DNA from: Psilocybe cubensis
Lineage: Eukaryota
Direction: 5' to 3'
Length of the DNA stretch: 64,000 bases
NCBI GenBank assembly: GCA_017499595.2
Contig: CM039003.1
Location: forward strand, 806,001-870,000
Part shown: piece after piece, positions 1-36,182 of the stretch
How the letters are laid out: the number at the start of each line of letters is the position of its first letter
Numbering within the stretch: position 1 is the stretch's first letter
Position numbers and translations under genes: made by a program
Notes under the pieces: generated by a model
Seen by the model: only the letters and a program-made list of their open reading frames with translations
Databases searched by the model: none
What the model was told of the DNA's origin: nothing

Positions 1-1508
1 GGAATAAAATTTTAACTTCTTCAGCTAACGCTAAACATAAATTGAATGTAAGAACATCGATTCAACTTCGACGGGACTGCTTTAATGTGGCTTGGCGCCT
101 AATTCAAACCTGATTCAAACTGCGCCTGAAAGTTTGAGACATGTGTCACGTGACTGCCTAACAGCTGGCACCGTGCTGCATTTTCTCCTTGCAAACTGCG
201 TTGAACCCAAGTTGAACCGGCATCCGACTCTGAGTACAGCTTTGGTCACAGCACCCCTTTGCCATAAATCACTCTTCTAATCTTTCGACTCGCGGCCCTG
301 GACAGAATTCTAGAAGGTGCAACTCCGGGGTTTGATTTCGTCGATGGTGTCAAAGCAATGGGATCTAAATCCCGCACTGTGGTTCGCAGAAACTCGAGAT
401 ATAAACTGTGTGGGATTTGCAACCTTGGTTTTCTGTTGTTTTTATTATTTTCTTAGCAAGCTCGCTTAACAACAATGCATTGTGGGCAGTTTGGTTCATT
501 GGGCCTACCTAGAGTCGGCTGCGAAGGTTGTCTGTCTTGGTGGAGTCCTCCGGGGACATGAACATTATTCAATGAACTAGAAGATAGTTGAAAACAGGGC
601 TACTCCTATAAGAAGATCACTTATTCATTTTCGGGATCTCTAGCGGCTGTTGCATACGGCTGACAACCTTTTCAGTTCTGTCCCATGTGGCCATATGTGA
701 CGCGGAAAGGCGAACGATAAGGCGCTTACTTTTTGTCTATCCAACTATAATTTTTATTCACCTAAAACTTGGATGGCATGCCTTGGACCCTTGGAAAAAA
801 CTCACGCAACCCCTTGTTTAGGGCTTAAAACGGCGGCTCAGATGCGGAAAGCATGTTTATTTCAATCCTCTGTCGGTTTATCTTTAATGACCAACTCACA
901 ACCTCTCTGTTGCCTTGTATTGCCCAGGTCTGATGCGAGTTCCCGGAGAATATCGAATCACCACATCCATGGCGCCATAAATCAGTGAGCAACAGTTTGC
1001 TTCGATATGTTGGTAAATGAATAAGCTCGGTGCGAGTGGTCGGAAGGATATTGTACAATATACCAAAGGGTTTGATACCGGCCGTGGTAGCATATTGTGG
1101 CCATGTCGTTTAACCGCTCTATTTCGGACGAAGCTCGGTGCGACGAAACGGATGGAAGCAAAAGAAAGTCTAATCGTCGACGAAAGAGCGCTTGTAAATT
1201 TGAAATGAGTGCATTAAATCAATGGTACGTTGTAATTTGATGTAGAAGTGCTTCTATTGGTTTATAACATATCATTCATTCAAGGTAACCAACTTTGCAG
1301 CATCATGTCCCACACCTCTGTGTACTGCGCAATGGCGCAGGGACTTTTCTCCACCACATGGCTCATCAATCACAGACCCCGTTGAAGGACGGACTGGTTC
1401 TCTTTTAAACCCTTATTTTGAACCTTTATATATTTTGGCAGCCACCTCTATTTCAAGTCTGACTTGTGTTTTTCCTACGTTCGAAGGACAAAAGGACTCT
1501 GCACAGCT

Positions 1509-15407: not shown

Positions 15408-18400
15408 TCATAAACGCGATAAAATGGGGGTCTCCGATTGGGGCTCTCTCTCCCCAGTGTCCTTCACACCACTCCCATTGTCATTCCCCTTCAGGCCCTT
15501 GAACCATGACAGGAGCGTTCCTGGCCTTCCATCTTCTTCCTGAACCTTGGCTTCTGCGATAAGCATCGGCCGGTGTTTATACCACCATCGCATCGCAGCT
15601 TCCTTCTCGCGATCTCCAGTCTTCTCAAGCAATTCACTGAAGAGGGCAGCTACCAATTCGGCCTTTTTTCCTTTTCCTTCCGGAGTAGTAGTGTCGCGAG
15701 TATCGTCTTGGGGGTATTCCAAGATCAATGACCGAATTCGATCCAGAGCTCGCAGTATCAGAGAAAGAGGTAATGAGGATACGGTCGAGATCAACACCAA
15801 GTGTAGTCGATACAGTCGTTCGGCATTTTGGTCATTGTCGTCAGATCGTGCCTTTCCTTTACCTTTCGCATCTTTTGGTAGAGGCGATAGTTCATGAATC
15901 GTATCCAAAATTAATTGGATGCAGTACCAGGCGAGTGTATATGAATCATCGGGTCGTTCATCTGAGGTGACAGTGCTTGCGCTCACGCTGGCACTCCGCA
16001 CAAGAGCCGAATATGCCAGCCGTAGCTGTGGTGTGCTAAGCTTCCCATCCACCGAATTCTAACAGAAAAGTAAATCCAAGGGATAGTGATCAGATTTCTG
16101 CGGTAGAAAGAAGAAAGGTAAGGCTAAAATATAGCTATAGCACCGGTTGAATCGGTAGGAAGTGTGCGTCGCATTAACAATTTTCCCAGTCTGGGATTGC
16201 TCCAGTATAGCAAACCGCAACTTTTGTAACGCAGGCCGACACCAAGGTAGAGAAAAGAAACCATACACAAAAGCAAAAATAACACTCACGTCAATCAGGC
16301 ACGAAGCGTAGAATGGAATCATGCGCTTCACAAACGTTGCTGAGAGAACAGATTCCTGGTTTGTACTAGTCGCAAAATCCGCCTCGGGTCCGACATTTTT
16401 GTTCTCGTTATCAGAGCTAATCACACTTGATAACACCCTGGCAGCAAAAGATTGCTCAATCATGGGCTTTTGTTTGCCTAAAGAGCCACCCGAGTCCTTT
16501 GGAGACAGTTGAACTGGTTCGGTACTCTGATTTCCGGGAAGGTATTGCTGTTGACGCTGAGCGTGCGATGCAAATATGGCAAGGATGACCGAATGAGCAG
16601 ACTCATACGTCTCCCGATGAGATGGGTCGGAAAGATGCCTATGAAAGACCCGTAAGTAAAAAGCCATAATCTTGTGAAGGTTTGTGAAGAGAAGATGAAA
16701 CCCTATGGCTACCCGCTAGGTAGCCAGTCAGACGAGAACCTCCCAATGCAGCTCAGTCAATTCAACTTTGACTAATAGTGCACTATATGACTAACGCATC
16801 CGCTTTGGTCATAAAATGAAGGCAATTTGGATCATAAAATCAAGACGCCCCTTTACTGGGTAGCTACTCGGTGGCGCAGGTTGTGAGGAAAGTAAAAGGT
16901 CAACCGACTCACGGATAGCATACGCCCCATACCCAGTCTCTGATGCATTTATCACTTAAAACTGGGACTAACTGCTCAATACTTGCGAGTACAAAAGCCT
17001 GCTTGGCTTGGCGTGGGGATGTTGCCGCTATTGAAAGGTCGGGTCAACCCCCGCAATTTTGATGAAATATGACGTTAAAACCTACCACTTTCCGCCCTTT
17101 GAGAGTTAAGAGTGAAGCATATTTGTTGGACATAGGCCTCGGCCTTGAGACCAGAATCCCCAGTTGCTCCATCGCCTTGAGCAAGTATATCTAGGGCGAG
17201 ATAAAAGGTTTTCTTCAGTTGTTCGAAACCTTGAGATGTCGTAGTAACACCCCCGAACTCTGAGATCACGAAAGAGAGATGGGATAAAATGTGTAATGTT
17301 TGCAGTGCCAAAGAAGCAGGGGTGACCTCGAAGGATTGAGGCGATAGGTAAATGGCCGCCGAAAGCACCGAATCGGTCAGCATGATGGTGGTAAAAAGAA
17401 GGGTTTTCAGGGTCATCCATATCGACTTGGTAATAGCCTTCGAATCCGATGCTAAAGAAAGCTTATCAGTAGATGGTGAGCTGCGATGGTAGCATCTTCC
17501 TACCAATATCAAGATCCGTGAAGCTTGCTAATGGACATGCAATCCAATCGCGTTCGACAACCTTGGTGAGCTCTTGCAGAGTGTCCAATGTTTCAGATAT
17601 AGTACAAAGTCCATCGGACAGTCTTGATAGAGATGGTGAGTCGATGAGGAGCTCCAAAACATATGCGGTAAATCTTGAAACTGATGCCATAGACTTTGTC
17701 AACGGAGAAGATGACATTGATTGCAATGTTTGAGAAAGAGGGGATGTAGGCTAAGGTTCGAGATTTCTCAGTTATGACAGTAAACAAATTGTATGATGAG
17801 TTCACCTACCGATATGTGGACTTGGTGATTTGGAGATAGAGTAACAGAGGCGGATACAGATGACAAGAATGTTCCAGCCTTGAAGGCGGATGAAATCGTA
17901 GAAGTCAAAAGACGGGCAAGAATGGGCAGAGGAAGTGCCTTCAGTTTATGCCGTGCGACTAGGGGTAGAGACTGGGAAGCAAGAATCAGAACCAATGACA
18001 GGATATCTGTCGTGGATATGAGGCAAATGTGTAAGCTGGGAGAGGAAGAACTCGCCTTGACCTGCGGGTTGGAACTCTTTCTCCCATTCCTCAATTCCGC
18101 TCGAAGACGGAGAAGTGCTGAAACCATGAGCATACGTATCCATGACTTCGGCGAGAGAAACGACCGTCTCATCTTCTACTCCCGACCTCGCGCTCCCAAT
18201 GTCCACACCCTCTTTCTTCTCGCCCTTCTGTCCGACTTTCAAGTCCTCAACCCCCAGAAGCAGTCCAGAACACGAGGCAAGCCTCAACACAGGATGTCCG
18301 CCTTGAACACCTTTGAGCACATCCGAAACCCACTGACTCATTGTTGTCTGGAGGCTCCTTCCAAGAAGCGTGCTGACTGTTGAACGCGTCTTCGCCGCTT

Positions 18401-18653
18401 CAGTCAAAGCTCGGTATTTAAGATGTATTCCATGTCGGAAAGCGGTCGAAAATGACTGTAATTTATCATAGGTAAAAGGTTGTGACAAGTAGAAAGGAGA
18501 AGATATGGCTGTTGCCGCCAAAGCTGTTGGAAGGGGCCATGCAGTCGCCAGATGGTGTGCTAGAGCTCCTTGAAGTGTCGAAAGGGGGAGTTTGGACGAC
18601 GTATCATGAAGGTGCGATAGTAAAATAGTATACCCTCGATCTTGAGATGCCAT
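15408..18653 (-). CDS. PEX8: PEX8-like peroxin (alpha-helical, C-terminal PTS1 SRL)
   Basis: Long helical multi-exon protein. Segments GGHPVLRLASCSGLLLG, IWMTLKTLLFTTIML, YESAHSVILAIF and LSTPQLRLAYSALV resemble fungal Pex8 as I recall it. Ends ...PILSRL*. Confidence 0.65.
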
Positions 18654-18983
18654 TCCTGGGTTATTTGCACACTTTTTCAGTGTCGATAGGGTATATTATT
18701 GAGAAGAAAGAAAATGGAGGTGGAGGTTGGAAGGGAGTAACGCAACTGGGGTTTCGAGCGAAACTATCCGGTTATCAAACCGGGTGTTTACCGGTATGAG
18801 TTACCGATTCCCTAAAGATTATTGTAGGTCATTGTAGGTGCAACGATTCAACAAATTCATTGTATCACAAAAATGTTTCCTCTTATGACCCTGGTGTGTT
18901 AAGGCTAAGTAGCACAAGTTGTATAGGTACGTCCTATGTGTACATAAAATCCAGAAATCCACATTGTATATCCAAAATCTTCG

Positions 18984-21254
18984 TCAAGTCAAATTTTCAT
19001 TCGTTATGCCATGCCAGAAATTACAGCGAGAAACCAGTGCGTCGTCAACTCGTTCCATCACAGAATTTTGTGGATTAAAGAGGATGCGTGAAAAGCTAGA
19101 ATCACTGTTGACGGGCTATATGACCAGTTCGATATTCAGTCATCTGGTGTCAGTGAGAATTGTACAGTACTAACCTGCCACTCTGGGCCAGATTTGGAAA
19201 CAGGCTTGCCCGTAGTTACGAATGATGTCAAATACTCTCGCATGATTTCAAAGAGTGCTAGATCATTATGGTCTGCATCTGTAGGGGGGTTAAAGAACGC
19301 CTGCAGCTCGTCCTCATGGTTGGAACCCAGGTGAGGATTATCGTAACTATGACGTGGGTCAGGGTCTGCAGGATCCTTAAATTCGCACAAAAGGCGTACT
19401 GGTATTGGTATGCAGAATCCCCGAAAGCCGGAACGGCAGGAGTTGCCATTAAAGCACTGCAAATATATCTAGCCTCACCATACATTTGCTGACCTTGCAG
19501 GCTAACATTACCACCGAAGTCGTTCAACGGATACAAAGAGAATCCGGTGTTGATGATACTTTCACTAGTCAGATTAGGATACTGTCCAATAAGGAAATTA
19601 AAGACAGTGGTTTCTGTTGCGTTTGCCAAAGATGTATTGGCCGCAGGATCCGGGATGGTGGAAGCCCAATGAGCACCTTCATTTGTATTCGAGCCTGAAA
19701 TGACGGGAATATGGGCGAACCGACCAGCTTGGTAGGCTTCGACTGGCCTTTCCTGAATCAGGGCATTATCGACAACTGGAGCAAAAAGAAATAAAGTATC
19801 CGGCCGGGCATCGAGTAGTTTGCTTCCGGCTTTTGCCACCGCAGTGCTGGTGAGTCCGCGAAGGCAGCTTAGTTGTCCTTTTTTGGCGGCGCTCGTTCCG
19901 CTTCCGCATCCTCTAGAATGAAGGTTAAAAATAAGAATATAAGAAGGTATATTTAACCCACGCAAGCTGTGCGAATTGCTGAAAGATATCTTCATCGTAG
20001 GCATCATTGAATGCAGGCGTGTAGACAAGAGGTGGACTGTCCATTATTGCCGCATGAAAGAGGCCTTCAGTATCTCCACCGTTTGCCATGAGCTGACGGA
20101 CAGGATCAACGACTGCAGTTACAGTGATATCTACATGAACTTACATGGTACATTATGGATCCTGCTCCTGCAGACTGACCCCACACTGTGACGTGGCTGG
20201 TATTAAATTAACATCAAGATGAAACTTATTGATCAGATTTTTTTAGATTTTGCGGGACGCTGCTTACCCGCTGTCCCCTCCAAATTGACCGATGTATCTT
20301 TGGACCCATTTCAGAGCAGCCCTCTTGTAACCATATTTAGTAACGTTATGTTTCCCTGAAGAGTGCATGCATCAGATGACATACCTGATCCAAGAGCCCA
20401 GCGTTTATTGACCCGTTGCTAGCAATTTCTGATCCTCCTGCAACGTATGACATTATCTTCTGGGGCAATTTATTTGGATATTAGTTGCTACAAACCCAAG
20501 AATCCAAATTGGCCGAGACGGTATTCAAAAGAAGCAAATACGAATGGTTGAGAACTTGATGCCATAAGTAAATCGGGAAGAAAGCTATGCGTGCTGCCAG
20601 ATTGGAATCCCCCACCTACATAGCTGACATGAGATCGACGATCATGGCATCAAAAGTAGGGACTGCTATACCATGGAACCATACTAGTACTGGAAGATTG
20701 TCGCCCACATGTGTATTGTTAGGCACAAAGATCTATCAGGCATTTGCTCAATTACGCTCTGGAGCATAGCGCAAAAATTCAGACTGACATTGCCGAAAAG
20801 GCAATCCTCAGATGTTTTAGTCGCCACAGTAGTTTGAGTCGTCCGAATGCATTCGGCGCCAAACTTGAAAACAGAAAATCAGGCCCATCCCAGAAAGCAT
20901 GATAAAGCATAACTTACCTTACTCGCATCCACAGTACCCAAATTCTTGGAAGGAGGAGAAATAGGGGCTGCCCATCGTAGATTTTTCGTCGGAGCGTCTG
21001 CAAACTTGACACCTCGGAATGAAATTATCCCATTCGTAGTATTCTGCTTTCCCTTGAATTTCCCGTCTACCAATGCCGATGAAAGATGGTTAGCGTCGAT
21101 GCCAATATATTAAGGAGCAAAAAAACATACAATCCAACGTCACTGTGGAGCCAATAAGAGCACCCATACTTCTTGTTGTGAGGTCGCATAGTACTAAACG
21201 TTGGAGAAAGAAGAGAAGCAGCAGCGACAGTATATAGTGCGTCCTGTCTGCCAT
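18984..21254 (-). CDS. Type-B carboxylesterase/lipase paralog 2, secreted, multi-exon
   Basis: Signal-like MADRTHYILSLLLLFFLQRLVLC, FRGVKFADAPTKNLRW, WGQSAGAGS, GSNTNEGAHW, SLQGQQMYGEARYIC (shared with paralog 1), NHEDEL. Stop at 18984-18986. Confidence 0.9.
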
Positions 21255-22394
21255 TGATCACCGTGAACAGCCTCAAAAGTGATGCAAAAGCAGGAGGCGA
21301 TACAATTTAGTTGGAAACTTGGGAGAAATGGAGGTGCGTGGAGATAAGGGCCCTATGTAAAATACATGGACTCTACTGCAGCCACAGGCAGCACGCAACT
21401 TCCCATGGTAAGAATTCTGAAATAGATACCCAAAAAAAGGTTGACAGTCTTTGTTCGCTCGGTTGGTTGTCGATATGCTTCATAGATATCAAGCTCTATA
21501 AAGACCCAGAATTTGTTGCGAGGAATACACAGCAAGATCTTTTTACTGTCGTTTTATATGAAATTTTAGGGAACTAAGGCCTCGACAACTTTCGGGAGTC
21601 TGCAAACTGGAGAACAACTCCACTGTGTTCTGACAATAGCGCAGGATAAAAACAGCCGGAACAAACATCCGAAATGCCTGTTGAAGGAGGGTAAAACCGT
21701 GGCATATCGGTGTAAAAGATAAGAAAAAGCAGTCTCAAGTCCCGTGGATTGTGTCAGGCTGGGTGCTAGAAGATAGGTTTGAAGAAGAGATTTCAAGTTG
21801 AAGTTGCAAGTCGTGCGAAATCGGACAAACACGCGATTACATGCGCCAGTCACATGCTTCTACGCGTCATTTAGACTTTCTTGGCCTTGCCTTGGCCTCG
21901 ATCGAATGCGAATGGTCTCCAGTGTCAATCATCCAGTCGAGCTAGATCTCAAGTAAAAGAGATAATCTCTCAGAGGAACTGGTAAGCCTTAGACATATAC
22001 AAAAAAATTTCCCGCTGTATTTTATGTGAGTTCTCCGACTTTGGCCCAAAAAAGGTGCGACAAGAGGCAGAAATATCTATTTTTGGAATGTCTAATATTA
22101 GGTCAAACCTCTAAAATTATGTCACTGGCAGTTGTTCTCTTTTGCCAAGCACCGATGGACACCTAGTAATTCGAAGATGGGAGGAACCACACCATGGCCT
22201 GACAGAGGAAAACGTTGATGAACTTCTATCTCGCCTACCTAGACAACTTACCGCGCACTCTGAGATAATGGCCACTGCAGTTATTGTGTGCTCGGAGCCT
22301 ATCTCGTGGATAATCCGTCGGATGCGCAGCTCCCACCTACAGCATATGATTGGATGTCCAGATAAAATTGCAGAAGCTATGGTCATGACTAACA

Positions 22395-22402
22395 TTGTAA
22401 CC
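22395..22402. repeat. Left 8-bp target-site duplication TTGTAACC
   Basis: Identical to 30681-30688. Confidence 0.85.
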
Positions 22403-22430
22403 GAGGACAGGTGGTTTGCGAAAAAAAATG

Positions 22431-22476
22431 GCGCGGACTGTCCGCCAGACTGTCCGCCGGACTGTCCGCCGGACTC
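22431..22476. repeat. Left subterminal array of 12-bp quasi-palindromic units (GGACTGTCCGCC)
   Basis: GCGCGGACTGTCCGCCAGACTGTCCGCCGGACTGTCCGCCGGACTC read directly from the sequence. Confidence 0.9.
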
Positions 22477-22808
22477 ATAGGCCTTTGGGTGGGCCTGTGT
22501 GACTTGGGTGAGTGACAGCCGTGCTCACTCTGCTCTACAGCGATCAGTGGCCTTCCCCGACACATTACCGCCCTCCGCCCCCCGCCCCCGACCTGGCCAT
22601 GAGAATGCTAAGTGCCACTGGTTAATATTTTAATGGCACCCCGCCTCTCCTGTATTTTTCCGCCTTTTCCACCAGTTACTCCTGCGGTGTGCTACTTCCA
22701 TAGACAAGGCCCGTTTAGGTAGTATTTATTGTAGCTGTTTTAGTAGACAATAGATGTAAAATGCTAATACAATTACATCGTTGAACAACTTCTAACCTTG
22801 CAACCATT

Positions 22809-25096
22809 ATGTCCTCTTCATCTAGTGCATATTCTTCATCTACTCTCCAATCAATCCTTCAAATCCAAGCTAGTATTGCCAAATATTTGGACTTTGAAGG
22901 ATGTTTGAAGTTCATTGAACTTATCCAACTCCTAAAGCCAACAATCTGTCTGTCACAACAACCAGGACTAGCAGAATCTGATGCGGGTGAAGACAAATGT
23001 CCAGCACGGTTGCGTCTGAACGTACACACTTTTCTCGCACAATCTTTAAGTGTCGATCATGAGGCTATGAAGATTATTTGGCGTGCAATGGCCAATATTG
23101 CGTGGAATTTTAGGGTTGATGAAAGCTGTGTTCATTCCTTTGGTCAACGTCATATTCAATGCTTTCTTGACTATGGAAGACAGAATGGCATAGGTGAGTT
23201 AGCATATATATCAAGCTAAAACCACTACTAATTCTAAAATCGGAGCCTTTTATCATCTAATGCCTCCTGTTCGTCATTGCCTTGATCCACGATGTGTTAT
23301 CAAGCCCAAGACTTCTAAAAAGGATGAGCTCCATCGACGTCCACTGAAAGAAGCACATAGCCGTTCTGTTACTGTTTTTACACAATCATTTGGACCCATC
23401 CCGGGTATTTCTACTTCAATGTTTTGTTCGGGTATGTGTTTAGTATTGTTATTTTGTTGAAACTCCCCCTTCTAACAATAATAAACGCAGGATGCCAAAC
23501 TCGATACTACCCTAACTACTGGGTAGATAGAGCACAATCCACTCGGACATTTTACCGTATACATCGCACCTTTCTGCATGTTACAGAAGGAATTTTTATG
23601 GACATTGCCACGTTGGAATTGTTTACGACAATGATGTTGACGTCTTGGTAGCTTCTTTCTTTTGTTGTGAATTTCTTCCATTAACTTGGAGTGTACAGGA
23701 CTTCTGCTTCAAATTGTGCCCGCATCTATAATGAAGCAATAGCTTCAAAGTCCCTGTCATCCTCTCTTCCTGCAGCATATTCCAAAAGCATGGTGCTAGA
23801 ACACAATGACGTATGGAATGGTCTTAGTCTCTTCTGGCTTCTTGAAGACTCGGAAGAAGAAGATGAGGTCTTACAAATTGACCATGTAGCGCCTAGTCAA
23901 GCCATCCGCCTCAGAAAAGCCTTAAAGAGACGGAACCTTCGGATGGCAGGGACTGGTCAGGAAGCTTGGAACCATGTATGTGATTTATGCTGCTGGTATA
24001 ATGATTTGCCCGATGGAACACAGAGTAAATTTTGAAAATTTATGATTCTAGTGATATATAACTCATGCTTGATTCTAGCTTTCCTTCGTTCTGTGGTTAC
24101 TGATGGCATAACTATTGGACGGCCTACCTGCTCTATTCATGACTGCGATATTCCTTTGGATTCCGTCAAACATCGGTTCTGCCCTACACATAAAGATCAG
24201 AACCTTATCTGTGCGGTTACTAGCTGCTCAGCTCCCATTGATGAGGGCTATCAAACGTGCAGTCTGAAGGATCACCGAGCTCTTGAAGCATACAACGATA
24301 TCCACAATAAAGCAATGTTTCAATTAAAACTTCGGCTTGCCCGTCTCAAAACCTCACAGCCCACTGATGCCTTTTCCACTGATGATGGCCAGTCAACCAT
24401 ATTTGGCGATGAAGAGGTTTTGATTGACGCCAATGGTGTCTGTGACGAGAAGTCAGAGAAGGGTAATCAAACATTGCGAGCTCGGTTTGGAAGGCGACGC
24501 ACTCATAATGAAGAGCTGTGTGTGGCATCGTGTGGTGTAATTCTTGGACGAGCAACATTCTATGGTTCAGAGGCCCCAAACGGAGTACGGGTGCGTCATT
24601 TTTCTTGCTTCTAGAGAATTGTTGCTTATTTAATTTTCAGACATTTTGGAAGACTTTGTTTCCTACCCAAAAGTCTCTTCCAGGAGTTCTTTGGCACGAC
24701 AATAACTGTCGAATTATGTTAATGCTTGAAAAGGAGAAAGACACGTACTTTTCCCACTCAGCATTACCCGTTGACGTATTCCATTTCAAGTGTAAACATA
24801 AAGCTCAAGACGACAAATGTAATGCCAATTGTAACCCAGCAAAATGGCCCGAGCTTATGACGCCTGATGGGAAGTGGCGTTTTAACTCATCTGCAGCAGA
24901 ACAAGCCAACGCTTGGCTAGGAGGGTATCAAGCCATTGTTCGTGAGATGCAGGCCGACAGATATGAATTCTTTTTGGACGAGTTAATCAAGAGGCGAAAT
25001 CGAAACATCATTAAGGATTTGGAGAAAAAAGGGAAAAATCCACATGAAATCCCAAGGGATTTTTTACTCAAGCCAGATACACCCAGAGTCGATTAG
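22809..25096 (+). CDS. KDZ-type transposase with CxC5 and CxC6 cysteine clusters (6 exons, apparently intact)
   Basis: CxC5-like PPVRHCLDPRC...SMFCSGCQTRYYPNYWV. CxC6-like CSIHDC...RFCPTH...CAVTSC...TCSLKDH. Core motifs VVTDG, RRRTHNE..CGVI, HDNNC, VDVFHFKCKH, FNSSAAEQANAW. Exons join in frame at GT-AG sites. Confidence 0.88.
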
Positions 25097-25921
25097 TGAT
25101 ATGTAGGAAGTTGTAATAAAGAGCATTAGAAATCATGTTGGAACCTACATTAGTTGTTGTGAACAAGCAGCAATCCGGGTTTAGTTGTTGCTCTGTGTCT
25201 TGAAAGCCTGCCGCTCGCACGATAACCCCGGCCCAGGGGTGATCCTTGGTGTTATCAAACAAGCGGCAGTTTTTCAAAACATGCATCCAGTATTGCCTCG
25301 CTACCCCACAACAATAAGCTGTAATAAGCTTTGCCACTGATGAAACTGAGAAACACATATGGGCACGGCGTCAACAAAGTGTGAAGTGTGAATGCCAGTT
25401 TATTGAAAGCTAGGGTGCTAACACTCGATCAATAACCAGACCCAGAACAAACGTGAATCAAAAACATTGAAACTGAAGGCAGGAAATCGCATTAACATGC
25501 CGAAAACTCACCGCGTCATATATCAACCCATGCTGATCCCACACCTTGACTTGACTCGCAGCACCTCCGCAACGCCCAACATCCTTCACACGCGCTGTTG
25601 TCACGCATGTCTACCACCTCATCCTCATCCTCCTTTCCTAAGTATTGATGCGCATACATGCTTCCGGGGTACATTGGCATTTCGTGTTCTACATCACTCT
25701 GGCACACTGAGGTCGAGTTGAGAAACGTTCGTCCGGTTGATGAGAGAGATGAGGTTGTGGGGTTGTGGGCAGCATTGTGGAGACAATATTGAACGGGAGT
25801 CGCAAAAGGGAAGAGACCGATTCTGAATACCACTTTTGAGTTGTACAGAGAACAGGATTGCGCTGAGCTCTGAGTCCGTCGGCGTCCGCGTGAGCGCACC
25901 CATGACATCTGCGAGCTCGTT

Positions 25922-26736
25922 AATAAGTAGCCGCTTCTCCCCAATCCACCGAGTAACTCTGTCAGCGTCTATTAATTCCAACAGCTCAGGATCATCCTTC
26001 ATTTGCTCGCGGGTCAGCATAATGCGATATGCAGCCTGTCCAGAATCCACCACATGATCCGTCGAACCAAGTTCCTTCAGCATTGCTGCTCGAGTGAGCG
26101 ACTTGATACCATCGGCGGCTAATATGATATCAGCCTCGACTCGCACGGCTGGACCTACTAATGGCGTAGCCAAGAACGATGGCTTCCTGTCATCCCCGCC
26201 AAAATTCACTTCAGATACGGCAGTCGAGAAGTGAAAGGTAATGGCAGATTGTGCTTTGCAGCCTTCGTAAAGGCTCCCAGCGAGCGAGGCACGGTGTCCT
26301 ACCATGTGAGCGTAGCCATATTTATCTTTGACGGAGTCGAACTCGACAAAGCCGAGCTCTTTGTCGGTTGTTCCCTCTGGGAAGATTTAAGCACATTGAT
26401 TTACTATGTCAAGAACTGATATTACTTACGTCTGATGCTCGTGCTCTTGACTAAGACAGCCTCGGACTCGATCTTTTTCCAAACGCCGAGTTTATCGAGA
26501 ATGCGTGCCATATTGGGGGCAAGTTGAATTCCTGCTCCTACAAAACCTAGGTTGGGCGCAGTTTCGTAGACATCGATATAGAGAAACCCTTCGTGTGCTA
26601 ACGAGAGGGCACAAGTGAGGCCACCCATGCCTTGATACTAGCTATGAGTTCATCATGTGAGTCAACTAACCGGAGGAAGGAGCTCACCTGCTCCAAAGAC
26701 CGCGACTCTCAACCGTCTGACGTCGTCGAAGGTCAT
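25922..26736 (-). pseudogene. 3'-truncated FAD-dependent monooxygenase (salicylate-hydroxylase-like) inside the transposon
   Basis: MTFDDVRRLRVAVFGAG|MGGL Rossmann motif, GAGIQLAPN, ADGIKS, GQAAYRI. Similarity ends at RWIGEKRLLI and no GD(A)xH motif follows. The frame runs on into unrelated sequence to a stop at 25694. Two introns are retained. Confidence 0.82.
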
Positions 26737-26745
26737 CGTTATCAG

Positions 26746-26913
26746 ACCTAGAGAAAGACACAAGACTCAGTGAACATGATGCATGAACGACTATGTTCCA
26801 ATCTACCTAGAGAAAGACACGAGACTAGATAATAGTGTAGTTAGTGACTAGGCGAGAGGATGCTAAAGGGAGAGTGGAAACTTTACCTCAGTGAACATGA
26901 TGCATGAACGACT
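26746..26913 (-). repeat. 47-bp duplication: intronless copy at 26746-26792; second copy at 26805-26824 + 26887-26913, split by a 62-nt GT-AG intron (26825-26886)
   Basis: Direct comparison shows one mismatch. On the minus strand the intron reads GTAAAG...CACTAAC...TATCTAG. Confidence 0.85.
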
Positions 26914-27431
26914 GAGGGAAAGAGGGCCGATGGATTTATTGAGACGGAAGCTATGAGCGCAATGAGCAGGTCATTCCTTGGGGAAGAGTGCTGTAGACAT
27001 ACCACAATTAAAAAACTCGCACTTGTTTCCGGCTACAAATACAAGCCAGAGCCCGTTGTCATCCAAAAAATTTCGATGGAGTGATTTGACGGACTTACAG
27101 CACGGATTTTGAGGTCGGGTCTTGCAGGGAGTCTTGACGTTGACGAGCGAGCTGTTCTACTCGCCTCTCAGTGACCGGGGGTTGTTGATGTGGTTTTGAG
27201 TATGTTGCCAGTGTATTTCCGTGCCCGAAAATTCCTGGTAACATACTCTCTGCCTCTTGGTTGGTGGAAACAGCGAACGGGTGTGTTGGGAGGTGTAAAC
27301 GATGGATGTGCACACGGTCATGTGACTACACGCGCCCTCACGACTTCGTCAATTTCTGGGTCGTCGGATTGGCATTAACTGTAAATTTGTTCAATTGTAA
27401 TATAAGTAATCGTTACAAAGTGCTACTGTAG

Positions 27432-30224
27432 CTACAGAGAATCAGGCTCTAAAGTCAAGTCAATGATTTCCCAGGTACCAAAAGCAATGCCAGGATGAGC
27501 AGAAACATCCTGCTTGATAGGTTTTTGGCCTGGAGAATCCACGGTCAGGTCAATAATATCACCGCTGATAACAGCACGCTCTTTTCCTTTTGCAGAGCCA
27601 GTGAGGGTAATACTATCACTCTTCTCTTCTTTTATAGTAGGAGTAGATATTGCTGCATCCTTGGTGATAGCATGCTTGTCTTGCAAAAGTTGCATTACTT
27701 CTAGCATAGAAATCCGAAGATCTTCTTGAATGAGAAGTGTCACTGTTTCAGGAAAAAGCACCTCTTCAATAACTGAATCATAGGTGAGAGGCTGTAGAAT
27801 TGACATATCTATGTCTTCTGAATCTTCAGGAAACATTTCTCTTAGCTCAGAAATAATAAGAGCTTGTATCTCTGGACCATAGCTTTGTAGAAGATACAAA
27901 TTAGTAAATCTAGCCATCTAAGAGCAGTATAAAATTACTTACTAGGCAATGCAATCTAAAAGAAGTTGATTCTTTGATTTATCCGGAGTTTGACTGCAGC
28001 TAGCTTCAAAGGTTTTTCTGGAATTACAGAAAAACATGCTTTCTTCAGGGTCCATAAGAACGTAACAAAGTAATTCTTTATCACCCTGGATTTGATGACG
28101 GAGACTGGATATCTTTTCTTTGGTCAATAATCCACCATTGACATTAGACTGAGCTATATGAGGCAAGGAAATATGGGAAAGAGGGCTGACACGAGCACTA
28201 GGACTGATGTTTTCTGAAGAACTTGAGTCATCCAAGCTGTCTGAAGAGGAGGACTCAGAAAAGGTATCTGGAATATCCTGGGGGTTTTTTAAGGCAGCCT
28301 GTAATGACCTATATGTTGCCTGTTTCGAGTTGCCCATGTCCACAAAATAGCCAACAATATCTTTGTCATATGTTTTCCAATAAGATTTGTGTTCATAAAA
28401 TGTGGATTTGTGAAAAGAAGCATCTGGAAAAGCAGCATAGAAAGCATCTTTGACACTTATACGAGATCTTGGACGAATAGATAATGCAGATTTCTTGGAT
28501 GACTTCATATAAGGGTTGCTTCTAGAGGTTTGAGATTTGGATAGTGTTTCTTGCATTTGAAGAAATCCATTGTGAATTTGATAGACCTTGAAATCAAACG
28601 GCCACTGCTTTGTAGAGTTATGAGATTTCTTTAGAACCTTTGGTGGTGGTGGTAAGTTATGAGATTTCTTTAGAACTTTTGGTGGTGGGGGTAAATCACT
28701 GTCTGATGAATTTGGGGTTCTATATCCATGTGGGCGCTTCTTCCTAGGAATATGGATATGATTTGATAAAATTGGACTAGCAGACCGATTTCTTGAGGTA
28801 GAATGTGTAATTGTTAGAGAAGATGCTTCCTGTATTGCAGATTGACGAATAGGCGACACTAATGTGGTGTGTTGTTGGGCTAACAAAGCTTGTGATGTCT
28901 TTGGTTGTAGTTTGAGCTCATCTTCAATTCCAGGACAGTGCTCTAATGTTTCTCTAAGGCTTGGACGGATTTTTAAAATCAGTCTTTGGCCCTTTTCAAC
29001 AGTAAGAACACTTTCCATGGTGAGAGTTACCCATTCTCCTTTCCAGTAATCCAGTTTGGTTGTTGGCTGAAGCTCCAAGTTTTTCATTAACTCAGCAGAG
29101 TCTGACAAGCGAAAATGGGGAAAGGATTGTATATAATATTCAAGCCTAATAGGAGGCTGTCCATTCTAGAAGAATATTATTAACTGCTTGAATATAAACA
29201 AGAATATGAACTCACAGTGTGATATACAACCAAAATACATGTTCTTTTTCGTTGTTCATCCATTTCATGTTGTTTAACTTTTAGAGATTTGAGGTTTCGG
29301 GTATGACTAAGTAATCCTGTTCGCTTTTGTGCCCATGTACCTCCTACAGGTTGAGCCAGGCCTCTTGGAATAACCTGTCCAAGTCCGAACTGAGTAGCAG
29401 GTGGTGTAGAAATAACCATATCCTGGTTTGGGGATTGATTTGGAGAGACCTGAGAAGCAGAAATATTGAAAGGGCTCGGTGGTGGTGAGATAGAAATGTT
29501 TTGGGTAACAGATTGGGTAGAAAGAGGAGGAAGAGGAGGAGAATGAACTTGAGAGATTCTTTCTGGAGAAGCAGGAGTTGAAATATCAGGAGCATAAGGT
29601 ACATTTTCGGGCTGGCGATGGGCATGACATGCCTTTCTAAAAGCTTGCTTAGAAATGGCATCTTTGCAAGCTTTGGTACAACAGGTCTTGCATTTATTTT
29701 CAATGCAAGTTCTACTCCCTTGAGTTCGGGTTCCTGACTTTGTAAAGCATGTAGAAACTGTGCAGAGTAGTTTATCTGATATTGGAATAGGAATAACACC
29801 AGTAGAGTTGGACTGAGCTCGTCTTTGTTGAGTCTGATTTGGCTGAGAAGAAGAATGATTGGCAGTGTTTGAAATGGAAATATAAGGTCTAAGAGTGCGA
29901 GGATAGCCCTGTGGATCATCAGGAAAATTAATTCGGTGCAAAAGACGTTGGGCATCCTCATATATATATGCAGGAGTATGATGATAGGTGTACAAACACC
30001 TATAATCAGAACACTAGACAATTAATTAGACTTGCACAATAAGCTAAGTTAATAACACATACAGTTTGACAGAGAGATCCTTTCAAATGCCTCTTGGAAG
30101 GAGATCCAGTAGCTTTGTATATAGCTATAGGTGGCATAGGTCTTCCACATGGGCGGTTGGATCTTCCTGGACAAAGACCAATAGGTGATATAGTAGGATC
30201 AGGAGGTAGGTTATCTGGGTTCAT
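27432..30224 (-). CDS. Transposon partner protein with Cys-rich N-terminal clusters and a C-terminal RTC4-like domain (4 exons)
   Basis: Exons join in frame (CQT|CSDYRC, VVYHT|NGQPP, CIAY|YGPE). Cys cluster CTVSTC...CIENKCKTCCTKAC...CHAH. Motif WPFDF...GF...STFYEHKSYW. C-terminal YYGP...PLTYDSVIEEVLFPETVTLLIQEDL resembles the RTC4 domain. Confidence 0.7.
28616..28693. repeat. 39-bp tandem duplication encoding LPPPPKVLKKSHN twice
   Basis: AGTTATGAGATTTCTTTAGAAC(C/T)TTTGGTGGTGG(T/G)GGTA occurs twice in tandem. Confidence 0.9.
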
Positions 30225-30618
30225 TGCTAAAACTATGCTCTAAAACTCAAGAACTTGTGCCAAATTTATAGATTTTCGGTTGTCATATTACATATATCTC
30301 CCTATAGAGAGCTACATAGTATGTCAATGCAGAGATTTCTAGCTTTGGCGCTACAAAGCGCGTCTAAACACGAGTGGCTGCGTTGGGCCAGCCACAATAT
30401 CCAAAAATGGAAAAGAAGCCGCAATAAGCCGGCCCAATTCTCACGTGTTTGGCAGTAGTGTCAAGTGGCAACAACAATGCGTGCGCCGTGTAGCGCATCA
30501 AGCGGCGGGGCATTGTTGGAAAGCATTGAGCTCGCTGCCTCGAACAGTGACCATGCAAGTGGGCCCCCGACGTGGCCCGGAGGTCACACTATGGTCACAA
30601 ATACCCACGATACACCCA

Positions 30619-30652
30619 GAGTCCGGCGGACTGTCCGCCAGACTGTCCGCGC
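30619..30652. repeat. Right subterminal array of quasi-palindromic units
   Basis: GAGTCCGGCGGACTGTCCGCCAGACTGTCCGCGC, ending 28 nt before the element end. Confidence 0.9.
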
Positions 30653-30680
30653 GAAAAAAACTCGTGGACGAACCTTTCTG

Positions 30681-30688
30681 TTGTAACC
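30681..30688. repeat. Right 8-bp target-site duplication TTGTAACC
   Basis: Identical to 22395-22402. Confidence 0.85.
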
Positions 30689-30819
30689 TTGTGCTGAGCT
30701 CCGAAACAGTGAAATGAGCCCATGTGATGACAACTGAATTACCATCTGCCAAAGGGGCCCCTATAGGCACTGACAAATCTCATACCACAAACGACTGACA
30801 CTTCATACTTATGCGACCA

Positions 30820-33666
30820 CTACAGCTTGGACTTGACCTTCCGGAGCTCCCTTGCTTGTTCACGCAAAACACGTCGAAGTAACTTTCCGCTCGGGGTGGT
30901 CGGAATGCTTGAGACAAATTCCACGCCGCCTGCCAAATGCTTATATTGTGTTTTGTGGGTTTTGACGTGCTGGACGAGACATATGATTAGACGAAAAGAA
31001 CCTTGTTGCGTTTCGGACGGACATTCTTACCTTAATGATAGATGCCTTGATTTCATCTGCAGCTGTCTTGCTCATTTTCGCTCTATTCGCGGCGTCTACT
31101 GTCAACGTAACAAATGCAAGTGGAATCTCTCCGCCTCATCATTATGGTCAGAATTATTATTAACACGCATGAACAAATTGCTCACTGTAATCATCTGGAA
31201 CCCCAACAACGCAGGTACCAGACACGTCGGGATGATCCAAAATACATCCTTCGAGTTCCGCTGGAGCAACCTGAAATCCTTTCACCTGATTGACATGGAT
31301 GTCAGGATCTATCCGCCCGGCATTTAATATTACATACCTTCAAAAACTCCTGATAGTTAACATAGTCAGTGTGAATTTCGTCCCAACCAAGGAAAATCAC
31401 ACCTTCAACCGATCAATCACCATCATCTCTCCGTCTTCTCCGATTTTTACCAAATCACCTGTCCTTACCCAACTGAAATGCAAAAGACTATTCAGATTCA
31501 TTTTATTGCCGTACGGAAAATTGTATATACCCATCGACAAACGTTTCTTTTGTTCTGGGAAAAAGAATAGAGAAAGTCAAAGTCGACGCCAACAATGACA
31601 ACGGAGTGCTCACGCTTCATGGTTGTTTAGGTACCCCAATGCAACTGAAGGAGTTTTTATGACCAATTCACCAGCTTCGTCGAAACCGGCCAAAGACCCA
31701 TCGCTTTTGACTACCCGGGCCACCATTCCAGGGATAAGTTGACCACTGCCTAGGTTTACACAATTTAGCCCATTACGTGACAGGTAAGTATTGTGAGCCT
31801 TACTTCCAGCGACTCCTCTTTTCTGCGTGGTGGGCCACAAAGTGGTGATTGTTGCGGTTTCGGTCGTTCCTTCATATGGTGTTCCAATAGTTTGAGGATT
31901 AAGCATACACAGTCACGTACCATGTCCTTGACCGATTTGGGCATCAGGGAACATTTCGAAGAGTCGTTGATTCAGCTCATGAGAGAGGGGAGCTGCTCCG
32001 CACATTATCACTCGAATATACCTGCGAAGGTTGTAATCCTTGACGGCAGGATGCTGAAAGATATAATCCAACGTTCAGTATCGACATATGCTTCAAAAAC
32101 CTTATGGATACCTTGCATAATAAGACCACTTGAGGAGGTACAAGCCTATAGAAAGGTTATCAAATTTTTCAAAGAAAGCTAGAAAGAAAATACATAAGGT
32201 GAGTAATTCGATGGCGCTCGATGCTTTTGAGGAACTCGATGAAGTTAAATGTCGGAAACACGACCAAAGACATCTGGTTGATTCGTTCGTTTCTCTGTCA
32301 CAATAAATGAAGTTGAAATCTCGAATTTGACATACCCCAAAAAACAATGTATAATGAAGCTGCAATGATCACACCCATTAACGAGCTGAACAAGACCTAA
32401 AGGGAACAAAATTACGTTCATGGCAAGGCCATACATATCTGTAGTATAGTGTTAGTTTACATACAAGGCATCAAGGTCTCTGTAAGATTTCACATACGAT
32501 AAAACGGGAGTACTGGTAGTAGTGTGAGTCATCTACGCCTTCAACACTTAGGAAATTAAACTAACCTGCACTAGCCACATCTCCAGGTCTGTATCGTTGG
32601 TCCTTCCAATCACAATAATTTTGATTGAGTTTATTATGAGCAGCCACCTGGATAGTATTCGCAATTATTGAATAATGAGGTATAGCTACGGCCTAAAGTT
32701 TCAAAGCTCAGTCATAAACCGTCTATTTTCAGAGTATTAACTCCACCTTTGGGCGGCCTGTTGTACCGGATGAAAAAGAGAGAAATGCAAGTTTGGTTTT
32801 GGCTTCTCCAGGAGCAAAGGTTCGTTCCGTGAATGCGAGGTTACTTCTTAAACCCAGTTCAACAAGGCTATCGACTGTTTCGTGACCCTCGGAGGGCTTT
32901 TCAGTGCCATCATTCGCACTGAACAAGATTATTCGGTCTGAAGGCAACCCGGCTTGCTTTGCAACCTCGAGTGCAACATCCAGGGAGTCGGGATGAACAA
33001 TCATGAGAGATGCCTTTGTTTCATGAAATTGATACAGCAATTCGCTGCTCAGGAAATCAGGATTTGCTCCTCTACAAAAGTCGGATTTTAGAGCCGTTAG
33101 AGGTAGATGATTAGCTGTGGGACGTACGATATAATCCCTCCAAGCTTCAGTACCGCCCAAATCGCAACAGGATAATCTAAATATACCAACGTAAGATGTT
33201 AGCTCAGGGGAAAAGGATGTACATACCCATCTGATTACGACAGTATAAAAGAACTGTGGAACGAACGCATCGTTGTCATGTATAATAGTCAACTACAGAT
33301 GATAGGGATTAACCCACCAACTTCGTCTTCTCCTGCTCTTCGTTTTAATTAAAAATTTCACAGATACCAATGGCGTAGACAACACACCTAGACCAAACCT
33401 GGATTTCAACCCACGCGCAAGTGAATCCGTTCTAAACCGCAACTGACGCACGAAAGGGGTCAAACAAATAGGTAGACATAGACCTAGTATTGTTATCCTA
33501 CCTCCCCTTCCGTGAAAGTCTTCCCAGTTTTATCGTGAATTAGCCAAGGAACACCATTTCGTCTGCCCGGACGCATTGGATGATTAGTCTCAAACATAAA
33601 TTGAGGGATCGTGACATCGTCAGGAATGTAGGGCAGTTCTATTCCTTCAATTGGATACCGTTCCAT
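30820..33666 (-). CDS. 4-coumarate:CoA-ligase-like AMP-binding enzyme 3, PTS1 (SKL)
   Basis: LPYIPDDVTIPQF, FLSFSSGTTGRPK, WVRTGDLV, VKGFQVAPAELE, IPTTPSGKLLRRVLR, C-terminus ...KVKSKL* (TAG 30820-30822). Confidence 0.9.
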
Positions 33667-35354
33667 GGTTGGTTGCCAGTGTAATGAGCTCGGAAACACG
33701 AATGAGATGCGATGAATTCCGTTGAACCTGAGCGTTTGTAATATATAGCAGATTTTGCGAAATTAGCGACTGATTACCTACAGTAGTACTCCGATATCAT
33801 GCCACGGCAGTGGAGTCGTTATGCCCGTCTTACGCTACATTAGGATATAGCCGATACATATGTGCGACACTCCGAGATACTTCGATGACTAATGCCGTCG
33901 AAGTCATTCGCGTCGATGTGTTCATACAAGAATTCAAGCAGGGTTACAGTGCGAAGTTTGAACAATTAGAACGCTTCATAGAAGCGAGAAACCACTGATT
34001 GGCAGGAAGCGTCTGCGCGACTTGGGCTATGAAGCAGCGTACAAGGTTAAGGGGAAGGTTCGAGCTCGAATGACAATTGCAACTTTGCAAGCTGTATTCG
34101 TTGCTTTCGCCTTGCACTTTCCTATATTGGTATCTCTTCTTCCGAATATTGCAACACAGTTTCAAATTTGGGATGTGCCGGTTACAAGTAACCTCCATTG
34201 CAAAACCAGGTTAACGGAGAGGAGGATGATGACGATGGTCGTAACGACCCGAGTTCAATAAATCTGCAGTGCAGATGCCATTAAATACGACGGCGAAGTC
34301 GGTGGTATAGGTGATCAGCCTATAAAGCTTACAGCGCAGATAGCCTATGAAGAGGTTTGTTAGAGAAACCAGCTCGATTTGTGTAATTCAAAGGAGGATT
34401 TCTACTGGTGATTTGGTCGCTGACCCGGTGCCACCGATTTCGCTTGGTAGAATAGACAGAGGGTAGAATTAAGTCCTTGATATACTAGCTCAAAAAAAAA
34501 ACCGTAGATAGATCGTATATTTCTACATCGTTTCTATATCCACTTTACTCTAAACATGATGAATAGAAGGTGGTAATAATGCGGTAACGGATTCTCACCT
34601 TATCAAATGCGATATAATCCTCTATGGGTTTTGCTTTGTCGGATATTGTGTTGGGATAATACCTGGTAAACGGTGGCGCATTGTACATCTAGCAGAAACA
34701 CACACAATGGATCAGAGCACGCACCATGCGACGTCCTTGAAAACCTTCCCTTCGATCACAGCGTTGTAGTAAGAGGCCGTCCTGGTGATTCGCAATTTGT
34801 CAAGATGATTCGCAGGATTGCCTCACGAAGAAGCCACATACCCTTTCCATGGACATACCGTAGTCGTATCTGAAGGGGTGAGAATCGTTTTCCTCACAAA
34901 TGCACGTGGAAAGTAGTGATTCCCTTCTATAAGGATAGTTTCATTTGATTCCGCAAGGAGACGGCCATAAAGTGATACGCGAATCATGGTTTAATTCGTT
35001 TAAAGTGATAGTCGTGATGAGAGTTGCGAGCAATGTGCGAATAATCCTCCATCGACATGTTTCAGAGAAAAGTCTTACCGATTTGACTAATGATTATTGA
35101 GGTAGGATCGAAACAGATAAAAATGGAAAGGCACCCTCTGGCCTCGTGATCGAAGTAGAATCGCGCCGGTGATTGGGTTTCGAGATCGTTCATAAATCTG
35201 TTGGAATATGGTGTTAAATGTGCAAAATAGGCGTTATTTGATACGACCCGAGAAATCGTATAAAACTGCCGGAGAATATAACAAAGTCCAACTCAACTTA
35301 TGTTCACGGTAAAGCTATTAAAACACATACCATAAAAACCATTGGTGATATCAC

Positions 35355-36182
35355 TCAAAGGAGCCGCTTTGGGGTTGTCAGTCTAGTCCAAAGGCAGTCT
35401 TCTTTTCTTGCCCTTCCACACCATAGCACAAATTCTCCTGGTTCTTGGTATCCGAAGTATACGACTCTTAATCTCTGGTCGAGTTCCATAATCATCGTCG
35501 TCCGCATATCCACCGGTTCCTCTGCCCAAAAGAAAGTTGTGACAACAATTTGAACGAGGTTTGCCAGCCCATGAATTCCGACTAAATGGTCAAGCAAAGA
35601 CGAAGCTGTTATTTGATGACCGGAATAGGAATAGTGAGTCAATGAAGGAAATAGTTGGGCGTTAAAGTCGGGCGTTAACTGTTCGTGTAATCGAAGGTGT
35701 GTGATCTGATGGCAAAGTTCAAAGCCGTATTGCTGAGTGATTCGTTGGAGATGGGCCCACGCATTATAGTTATCGAATAGAGTAAGCTCGACAAGCCTCC
35801 TGTGACGATTTTTGCCAGAGCATATGGAATATAAAATGGCCTTGGAGCAGGCTAGTGACACCACGTTGGTACATTCTTGAGCGACCGCAATACAGATACT
35901 TGAGAACCCGTTGAGCCAAAGATAGCGAACGCAACCGGCAAGCCCGGGTTCGCTACTGATAAACCGGAAAAATGACAGCGCTGTATTCGTATTCAAACGG
36001 ATCGGAATATATGGTAGCCTTTCGTATTTTACCAGCCGGTGGAGGCGTTTGCACACCAGAAGTAAGGAACGATACATGGACTGGGACCCGCAAGCCAGAG
36101 CAAAGATATCAATGAGGAGCTCATTGGGTAGAAATTCTAATCCACTTATATCTGGAGTCCTTGTCGACAGAGAGTCCGTCAT
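35355..36182 (-). CDS. Single-exon F-box-like protein (275 aa)
   Basis: N-terminal LPNELLIDIF...LLLVCKRLHRLV F-box-like pattern, followed by LRR-like ITHLRL/FPSLTH segments. Confidence 0.6.
   Translation of the reverse strand: MTDSLSTRTPDISGLEFLPNELLIDIFALACGSQSMYRSLLLVCKRLHRLVKYERLPYIPIRLNTNTALSFFRFISSEPGLAGCVRYLWLNGFSSICIAVAQECTNVVSLACSKAILYSICSGKNRHRRLVELTLFDNYNAWAHLQRITQQYGFELCHQITHLRLHEQLTPDFNAQLFPSLTHYSYSGHQITASSLLDHLVGIHGLANLVQIVVTTFFWAEEPVDMRTTMIMELDQRLRVVYFGYQEPGEFVLWCGRARKEDCLWTRLTTPKRLL

Follow-up and report, generated by a model that had tools for sequence, protein, structure and literature searches.

The question raised by positions 22,395 to 30,688 of a 64,000-nucleotide stretch of Psilocybe cubensis DNA (GenBank assembly GCA_017499595.2, contig CM039003.1, positions 806,001 to 870,000 of the forward strand; hereafter the window) is whether this segment is a complete transposon that has moved recently and, if so, to which lineage of transposons it belongs. 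An earlier note, made from the sequence alone, had read the segment as a cargo-carrying KDZ transposon in which two genes, encoding a transposase and a partner protein, face inward between two copies of the 8-bp word TTGTAACC, taken to be the target-site duplication (TSD). Based on the analysis of empty sites, further copies, protein models and related elements, we consider it probable, at roughly 85%, that the segment is a complete, autonomous and recently active cut-and-paste transposon of the CxC5/CxC6 lineage, which is most likely a compact and divergent branch of KDZ.

Four public runs that hold a flank together with part of the element (X5, X9, X10 and X15) were aligned to window positions 17000-36000 at 90% likeness, and in all four a joint from 22394 to 30681 was observed that skips 8286 bases, with eight letters fitting either side, which is a clean empty site with one TTGTAACC. 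The joint is carried by a 5537-nt contig in X5, by a 6201-nt contig in X9 (a run with a different organism label), by 17 raw reads with 16 starts in X15, and by a spliced contig in X10, which is regarded as RNA because GT..AG-type introns are present. The 8-letter joint confirms, with exact coordinates, the earlier assertion that TTGTAACC flanks both ends of an 8278-bp unit. The word alone would be little proof, since it has six matches in the window against 1.8 expected. A 7-bp duplication of the Kyakuja kind (TTGTAAC or TGTAACC) was also considered, and was ruled out by the eight shared letters of the joint and by the unextendable 8-bp duplications of related elements.

Other copies were found to end at exactly the same two bases, none of them running past 22403 or 30680. 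Reads of X15 break precisely at 22402/22403 (60 and 120 reads) and at 30680 (187 reads), and consensus agreement beyond these break-points is 0.44-0.54 (0.45 at 30680), which implies that the copies lie in many different flanks. Depth in X5 is 70-79 over the element against 21.7 in the flanks, and raw depth in X15 is approximately 70 against approximately 32, while the X5 contigs on 22403-24823, 24799-25608 and 27230-30680 show 0 differences from the window over 6.7 kb. In the Psilocybe cubensis annotation, one transposase sequence (P0392) corresponds to three NCBI accessions on three contigs, and a variant differing by one residue (P0001) comes from a fourth locus. At two loci elsewhere, the locus tags 0003995/0003997 and 0011944/0011942 put a single gene between transposase and partner, as would fit a gene having been predicted on the spacer of those copies as well. 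When the window was searched with the element by BLAST, no second copy was returned, the matches being confined to the element's end repeats and an internal repeat of 27 nt. X15 also contains two internal-deletion joints, 22454 to 30483 with TGGC between (15 reads) and 22582 to 30655 with GAGCTG between (9 reads); these derivatives keep both ends, as would be expected from faulty gap repair after excision. A polymorphic insertion together with identical copies shows recent activity, and the view that the element is recent is thus borne out by the empty site, the identical copies and the intact genes.

At both ends, GCGCGGAC starts exactly 28 nt inside the TSD and marks the start of a series of 12-bp units GGACTGTCCGCC, of which there are three at the left end and two or three at the right. 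With up to one mismatch allowed, this unit has five matches in the window, all at the element ends, against 0.06 expected. The features of the element, of the adjoining host exon and of the complete relatives discussed below are collected in Table 1.

Table 1. Features of the element and its right flank (positions in the window), and complete relatives from metagenome contigs.
Feature	Position	Strand	Details
Left TSD copy TTGTAACC	22395-22402	.	Single copy at the empty site in 4/4 runs
Whole element, 8278 bp	22403-30680	+	8286-base joint (8278 + 8) and break-points of other copies
Left terminus, 5'-GAGGACAGG	22403-22430	+	28 nt before first subterminal repeat; GAG[GA] start common to 5 relatives
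Left subterminal repeats	22431-22476	+	Three 12-bp units GGACTGTCCGCC, near-palindromic core CGGACNGTCCG; motif kept in L004 and L052
Transposase gene	22809-25096	+	6 exons, GT..AG introns, 673 aa; spliced translation equals P0392 exactly
Transposase exons	22809-23193, 23246-23431, 23491-23647, 23699-24024, 24079-24590, 24641-25096	+	
Predicted RNase H-like DDE region	23982-25063	+	Residues ~338-663, two introns included; candidate triad D360, D542, E609
CxC6 zinc cluster	24096-24290	+	Residues 358-422, after first strand of the catalytic fold; Pfam, model and exon map
Spacer between the two 3' ends, 2335 bp	25097-27431	.	Length varies across the family
Captured 5' fragment of host FAD-monooxygenase gene	25922-26736	-	~235 codons, one intron, at least 815 bp
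Partner gene	27432-30224	-	4 exons, 877 aa; spliced translation equals P0122 exactly
Partner exons	30224-30063, 30013-29216, 29165-27943, 27882-27432	-	
Partner RTC4-like domain	27678-28043	-	Residues 695-796, intron included; PF14474 1.7e-6 on P0122
Right subterminal repeats	30619-30652	+	12-bp unit GGACTGTCCGCC; 33-nt inverted arm (85%) with 22431-22463
Right terminus, ..CCTTTCTG-3'	30653-30680	+	28 nt; reverse complement CAGAAAGG; CAG[GA]AA in L004, L013, L063 and L008
Right TSD copy TTGTAACC	30681-30688	.	
Last exon of AMP-binding-enzyme gene	30689-30969	-	Ends ..KSKL, ..SGKLLRRVLREQARELRKVKSKL; stop codon 30820-30822
Relative L004, 7196 bp			TSD CCCTGATG; right end, reverse complement, CAG[GA]AA
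Relative L013, 9050 bp			TSD GGCAATTT; right end, reverse complement, CAG[GA]AA
Relative L063, 8554 bp			TSD TTCCGAAC; right end, reverse complement, CAG[GA]AA
Relative L008, 9992 bp			TSD GCGAAACG; right end, reverse complement, CAG[GA]AA
Relative L052, 8368 bp			TSD ATGTGAAT; right end, reverse complement, ATGGAA

The presence of two inward-facing genes, the transposase on the plus and the partner on the minus strand, was confirmed, as was their splicing into uninterrupted frames, the translations being letter for letter those of P0392 and P0122. No contig of X10, the run guessed to be RNA, lies on either gene, a result that is uninformative on expression either way. Pfam identifies both CxC5 (PF18718) and CxC6 (PF18721) in 42 of 42 aligned members of the transposase family, with scores of 2.5e-30 and 2.8e-26, respectively, for the near-identical protein P0001. 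An AlphaFold model built from the 42-member alignment (pLDDT 85.8, pTM 0.84) was compared with solved structures by using VIA-align to re-score the weak rows returned by Foldseek. The ISCth4 (IS256-type) transposase reached Z 11.4 and 11.1, with 319 residues aligned for the best, followed by Tn5 (Z 9.4), TnsB (Z 9.3-9.4) and the integrase cores of ASV, RSV, PFV and HIV (Z 8-9, root-mean-square deviation 3.0-3.6 over 126-146 residues). All of these matches are DDE transposases or integrases and all fall inside residues 338-663, and the fold of the transposase, as modelled, is an RNase H-like DDE fold. D360 is invariant among the 42 sequences, and at least 90% of them share D542 and E609. D360 (VTDGITIG) lies on the first strand, with the CxC6 cluster (358-422) and a disordered loop next; D542 (WHDNNC) lies directly after the fourth strand and E609 (SAAEQ) on a later helix. 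By this order of strands and helices, rather than by coordinates, the three residues make a candidate D-D-E site.

The partner protein comprises zinc clusters, a beta-grasp domain and an RTC4-like helical domain, and its model contains five confident domains (10-95, 135-195, 280-410, 500-625 and 665-805) with disordered linkers between them. At E<=0.001, a search of 1.84 billion representatives returned 342 relatives of P0122, and PF14474, the sole Pfam family matched, was found in seven of the ten partner homologues scanned (best 4.6e-27). Residues 307-395 resemble beta-grasp proteins (DIX, PB1, ubiquitin-like) with a middling best Z of 6.8 (VIA-align, 48,161 chains), the beta-grasp being a common arrangement. 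Foldseek against the PDB gave no match to the partner model at E<=0.001, the ESM Atlas gave no usable feature match, and no enzyme fold was recognised in a search of the whole 877-aa model, by which the domains outside the beta-grasp were barely probed. The literature search found no publication linking RTC4-like proteins with transposons. Within the partner gene, at 28616-28693, two tandem 39-nt copies (95% alike) duplicate a proline-/lysine-rich stretch (..LPPPPKVLKKSHN..) of a disordered linker.

Metagenome contigs were scanned with the transposase alignment, which yielded 218 relatives, of which 80 loci were kept. At the 23 loci that include the C-terminus of the transposase with 3 kb or more of sequence behind it, a convergent partner homologue is invariably present (23/23), 15 being detected by tblastn and the other eight by a profile of the partner alignment. 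This profile match lies on the strand opposite the transposase at 49 of the 50 loci with a match, and the gap between the two 3' ends ranges from approximately 80 bp (L010) to 2.8 kb. The exception is L058, where the partner homologue (2-1375, plus strand) is upstream of the transposase and shares its strand; it may belong to a neighbouring or rearranged element. Complete elements were sought as 8-mers repeated outside both genes with [GC]AG[GA] adjoining on the element side at both ends. Four of 24 loci passed this filter, most of the 24 having only one flank, while pairing left and right windows of different loci as a control gave one match in 552 pairs. A fifth complete element with an 8-bp TSD, L052, was found by eye, its right end failing the filter. 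The left end is GAG[GA] in all five complete relatives, and 5'-GAG..CTG-3' ends are shared by the window element and four of them. Units of the CGGACNGTCCG kind occur at both ends of L004 and L052, as in the window element, whereas L063 and L008 have TTCGCGAA-type units in their place; short palindromic subterminal repeats are therefore conserved in position and differ in sequence between subfamilies, a pattern that would be expected of candidate transposase binding sites.

Two further observations concern the repeats and the spacers of the family. At 22436-22469 of the window, reads or contigs of X5, X9 and X15 match the triple 12-bp repeat only and continue on either side into one other sequence (agreement 0.98-1), the right-hand part of which finishes in bases resembling an L004-type terminus in reverse complement (..CCAGTAAACGAGAT..); there seems to be a sibling element family with the same subterminal units in the same genomes. 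A third family gene in the spacers was also considered and rejected, as the spacer open reading frames (ORFs) are not conserved between elements.

The spacer of the window element had been described as about 2.3 kb of foreign-looking DNA. Its size stands at 2335 bp, while its foreign nature does not, as at least 815 bp are a truncated copy of a host monooxygenase gene. Residues 84-235 of P0272, filed as 'FAD-dependent monooxygenase OpS4 [Psilocybe cubensis]', are 98.7% identical to 26377-25922 (2 mismatches in 152), with divergence thereafter, and residues 1-84 align with 26736-26428. The match of the spliced X10 contig is confined to 25922-26741, and X15 reads and X9 contigs break near 26917-26926, so that by these break-points the likeness to the host monooxygenase locus may run to approximately 26926. 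Depth over the fragment equals that of the element plus slightly more in both X5 and X15 and, together with the spacing of the locus tags, indicates that the fragment travels with other copies. Its truncation identifies it as captured host DNA rather than a working passenger gene, and the notion that the element transports host DNA therefore holds for carriage and fails for a functional cargo gene.

A second capture of a host fragment is suggested by L008, the spacer of which holds what looks like a C-terminal kynureninase fragment (5389-5859, plus strand; PF22580, 1.2e-6) that is missing from its close relative L063, with near-identical ends. Besides this fragment, the long plus-strand ORFs in the spacers of L013, L063, L052 and L008 gave no Pfam match. 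Pack-MULEs, CACTA elements and Helitrons capture gene fragments. Their captures resemble the present one in that a truncated, near-identical host piece (a 5' end with its intron) lies inside a mobile element and is copied along with it; unlike them, the present element holds its capture at one fixed site, the spacer between convergent genes, and stays autonomous.

Two side observations were made on this part of the spacer. At 25694-26386 (minus strand) the best matches of the monooxygenase fragment after the Psilocybe cubensis protein bear ascomycete names, mostly of Dothideomycetes (59-66% identity over 66% of the query), and the Psilocybe cf. subviscida homologue is only 48% alike, an odd taxonomic pattern for a host gene. 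At 25242-25875, X5 depth is 125 against 70-79 on the rest of the element, which implies that the genome has additional copies of this part of the spacer, on the left side of the monooxygenase fragment; one X5 contig there has small deletions at 25544 and 25569.

Taken as a working model, the CxC5 N-terminal region of the 673-aa protein would bind the 12-bp near-palindromic units 28 nt inside the ends, and the putative D360/D542/E609 site would cut at 5'-GAG..CTG-3', the ends being joined to the target with an 8-bp stagger. The convergent 877-aa partner may be a required non-catalytic second protein, in the manner of the Myb-like second protein of PIF/Harbinger, and the variable spacer between the 3' ends would serve as the site at which host DNA is acquired and transported.

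Several points weigh against the reading of this unit as an active transposon of KDZ type. The Pfam KDZ model PF18758 is matched by none of the 42 family members, even at E<=10 (hmmscan), and is absent from all 120 homologues listed, while Foldseek against the PDB returned no match to the transposase model at E<=0.001, its weak top rows being integrases and transposases. The inverted repeat at the very tips is imperfect and covers few bases (GAGGACAGGT versus CAGAA-AGGT, about seven of the first ten bases matching, with one gap), and next to it an A-run on the left stands opposite a T-run on the right. The catalytic triad, the attachment of protein to the 12-bp units and any part played by the partner in transposition are inferred, as is transposition itself, from polymorphism and identical copies; the evidence concerns recent rather than present activity, and the truncated capture is 'cargo' in a restricted sense.

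The KDZ label of the earlier note draws its support from the CxC5/CxC6 clusters, the RNase H-like fold and the leads to PF18758 from language-model and structure comparison that are given below. In the available parts of the papers cited, Zisupton and Dileera elements are described with 8-bp TSDs, and Kyakuja elements with 7-bp TSDs, 5'-CA..TG-3' ends and no terminal inverted repeats (TIRs), while the fungal KDZ companion genes described are TET/JBP dioxygenases (Kojima 2025, PMC12730594). The Cryptococcus elements KDZ1-3 (Dileera clade; 9-11 kb) combine CxC1, a PF18758 match and TIRs of 139-241 bp, and KDZx1 (Zisupton) combines CxC4 with SWIM; mobility within the species has been seen or inferred (Huang et al. 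2024, 10.1101/2024.08.15.608186; 10.1101/2025.05.19.654958). The present element agrees with KDZ in the CxC-type zinc clusters and the modelled RNase H-like DDE fold of its transposase, and with Zisupton and Dileera in the 8-bp TSD of the window element and its five relatives. It lacks the long TIRs of KDZ1-3, having a short end match and the 33-nt subterminal arm at 85%, and neither the CxC4 cluster nor the SWIM zinc finger of Zisupton is among the Pfam matches of the 42 members. Its 8-bp TSD and GAG..CTG ends separate it from Kyakuja. The general features of an autonomous cut-and-paste element (defined ends, TSD, empty site, further copies in different flanks, intact transposase and internal-deletion derivatives) are all present.

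Like KDZ1-3 and KDZx1, as far as these have been described, it is a large, multi-gene fungal DNA transposon with an N-terminal zinc cluster and extra genes of unknown function, and the 8-bp TSD is shared (4-8 bp for KDZ2 and KDZ3); it differs from them in having few matching end bases, 12-bp subterminal repeats, CxC5 together with CxC6, no PF18758 match, a 673-aa transposase and a conserved RTC4-like partner. In Kyakuja-1_LB, Kyakuja-2_LB and the Dileera element 'Zisupton-1_PGr', all from basidiomycetes, a second gene likewise travels with the transposase (PMC12730594). The companion of Kyakuja is of the TET/JBP type, whereas Pfam at E<=0.01 gave only PF14474, or nothing, and no TET/JBP match, for the partner and nine homologues, and no TET/JBP match among the ORFs of the element.

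These comparisons bear on the alternative that survives best, namely that the transposon is real and its transposase belongs to a separate DDE lineage, for example nearer to IS256- or MULE-type enzymes, which merely shares CxC clusters with KDZ. The failure of PF18758 in all 42 members would favour it, as would the rank of ISCth4 and Tn5 above the integrases among the structural matches and a partner that is not the usual fungal KDZ companion in the available part of Kojima 2025. Against this, no KDZ structure has been solved, so the PDB matches cannot discriminate between KDZ and other lineages, and the 8-bp TSD has the length of Zisupton and Dileera (Kojima 2025, in the part available). Moreover, when CxC5/CxC6 clusters were excluded from an ESM Atlas search, all nearest named neighbours of residues 330-673 carried PF18758, with scores of 0.82-0.88 that lie below 0.9 and offer a lead only, and a rotifer cluster (CxC5 58%, KDZ 25%, CxC6 24%) aligns over its PF18758 part (TM 0.55, 221 residues). 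We consequently regard a separate lineage as unlikely and KDZ membership of the transposase as probable, the enzyme being most likely a compact, divergent one of KDZ type. A bolder reading, which is possible though on the whole doubtful, is that CxC5/CxC6 elements form a distinct two-protein lineage of superfamily or deep-clade rank, with CxC6 inside the RNase H fold behind its first strand, an obligate convergent partner working as a second protein of transposition, subfamily-specific palindromic repeats as recognition sites and a standing capture site in the spacer. If so, cellular proteins with an RTC4 domain might be related to the partner or have been domesticated from it, and the sporeless mutation of Pleurotus would be an ordinary insertion of a CxC5/CxC6 element.

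It is less likely still that the element moved recently and is now silent or dead in this strain, through host silencing or loss of a trans factor, its copies being young fossils. Target-site data record past insertion only and would suit such a history, yet both reading frames are unbroken and match those of other copies exactly, the X5 copies, from the strain of another study, lack any difference over 6.7 kb, and both polymorphism of the insertion and deletion derivatives are seen.

The sporeless mutation of Pleurotus ostreatus provides the background to a third alternative. In this mutant, a 6,792-bp insert around a 739-aa CxC5/CxC6 ORF disrupts poMSH4 (Lavrijssen et al. 2020, PMC7641404). 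According to the available part of that paper, the insert is multi-copy, the genome containing further identical copies of it, and has small internal repeats; its mobility was ascribed to Copia retrotransposons, given that CxC5/CxC6 regions often lie beside Copia and no KDZ domain was found near; the description is repeated in PMC12568894. The text of PMC7641404 reports no TSD or terminal repeats, and the terms 'target site' and 'inverted repeat' occur 0 times. Both the poMSH4 insert and the present element are multi-copy units of similar size around a CxC5/CxC6 ORF, as far as the insert is described, and by analogy the insert would be predicted to have GAG..CTG ends, an 8-bp TSD and a partner gene. 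Were the CxC5/CxC6 gene a passenger in a unit moved by other machinery such as Copia, as the association reported for Pleurotus (PMC7641404, in part) would suggest, one would have to account for the exact 8-bp TSD and defined non-LTR (long terminal repeat) ends, with no second end copy or LTR within the window, for the fact that relatives from numerous samples keep the ends and the convergent partner together with the CxC5/CxC6 gene, for the DDE fold predicted for the CxC5/CxC6 protein itself and for the retention of both ends by the internal-deletion derivatives; we find this very improbable. Least probable of all is that the polymorphism arose by deletion, the filled state being ancestral and the empty alleles stemming from recombination between the TTGTAACC copies, for although a single TTGTAACC at the empty site fits either history, the 8278-bp unit lies at other loci with other flanks and the same end bases, the empty form occurs in four of four runs from four studies and two organism labels and is crossed by a spliced host transcript, and the relatives have different 8-bp duplications.

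Proteins with CxC5/CxC6 are very common in mushroom genomes, the homologue search giving 140 matches, and 44-60 copies are reported for one Pleurotus genome in the available part of PMC7641404. Large fungal KDZ-type elements with 8-bp TSDs are already known. For the CxC5/CxC6 domains, the only literature found was the two papers on the poMSH4 insert (PMC7641404, PMC12568894), and the anatomy of this lineage (its ends, subterminal repeats, partner, spacer capture and CxC6-inserted DDE fold) was found undescribed in the searchable literature, to which Repbase and Dfam, where the lineage may already be listed under another name, do not belong. This study supplies exact ends, TSD length, candidate binding sites, a predicted DDE fold and an invariably linked second gene for the lineage. 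With these, what had been an ORF with cysteine clusters and no assigned role becomes a transposition system open to testing, and a mushroom mutation in commercial use, that of sporeless Pleurotus, gains a ready explanation. The identical copies, the polymorphism of the insertion and the deletion derivatives suggest that a mobile element usable at present exists in a cultivated basidiomycete, and the capture of host gene fragments is one way in which such elements reshuffle host sequence.

With regard to its surroundings, the element lies approximately 130 nt downstream of the stop codon of the AMP-binding-enzyme gene. The spliced X10 contig, which has CT..AC introns, crosses the empty site and extends 39 nt past it, which places the element in the 3' untranslated region of this gene. 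Two kinds of ORF recognised by Pfam occur twice in the window, a carboxylesterase at 5034-5705 (plus strand) and 10111-10659 (minus strand) and an AMP-binding enzyme at 19261-20043 and 32732-33292 (both minus strand), an arrangement suggestive of a gene pair that was duplicated around the site of insertion.

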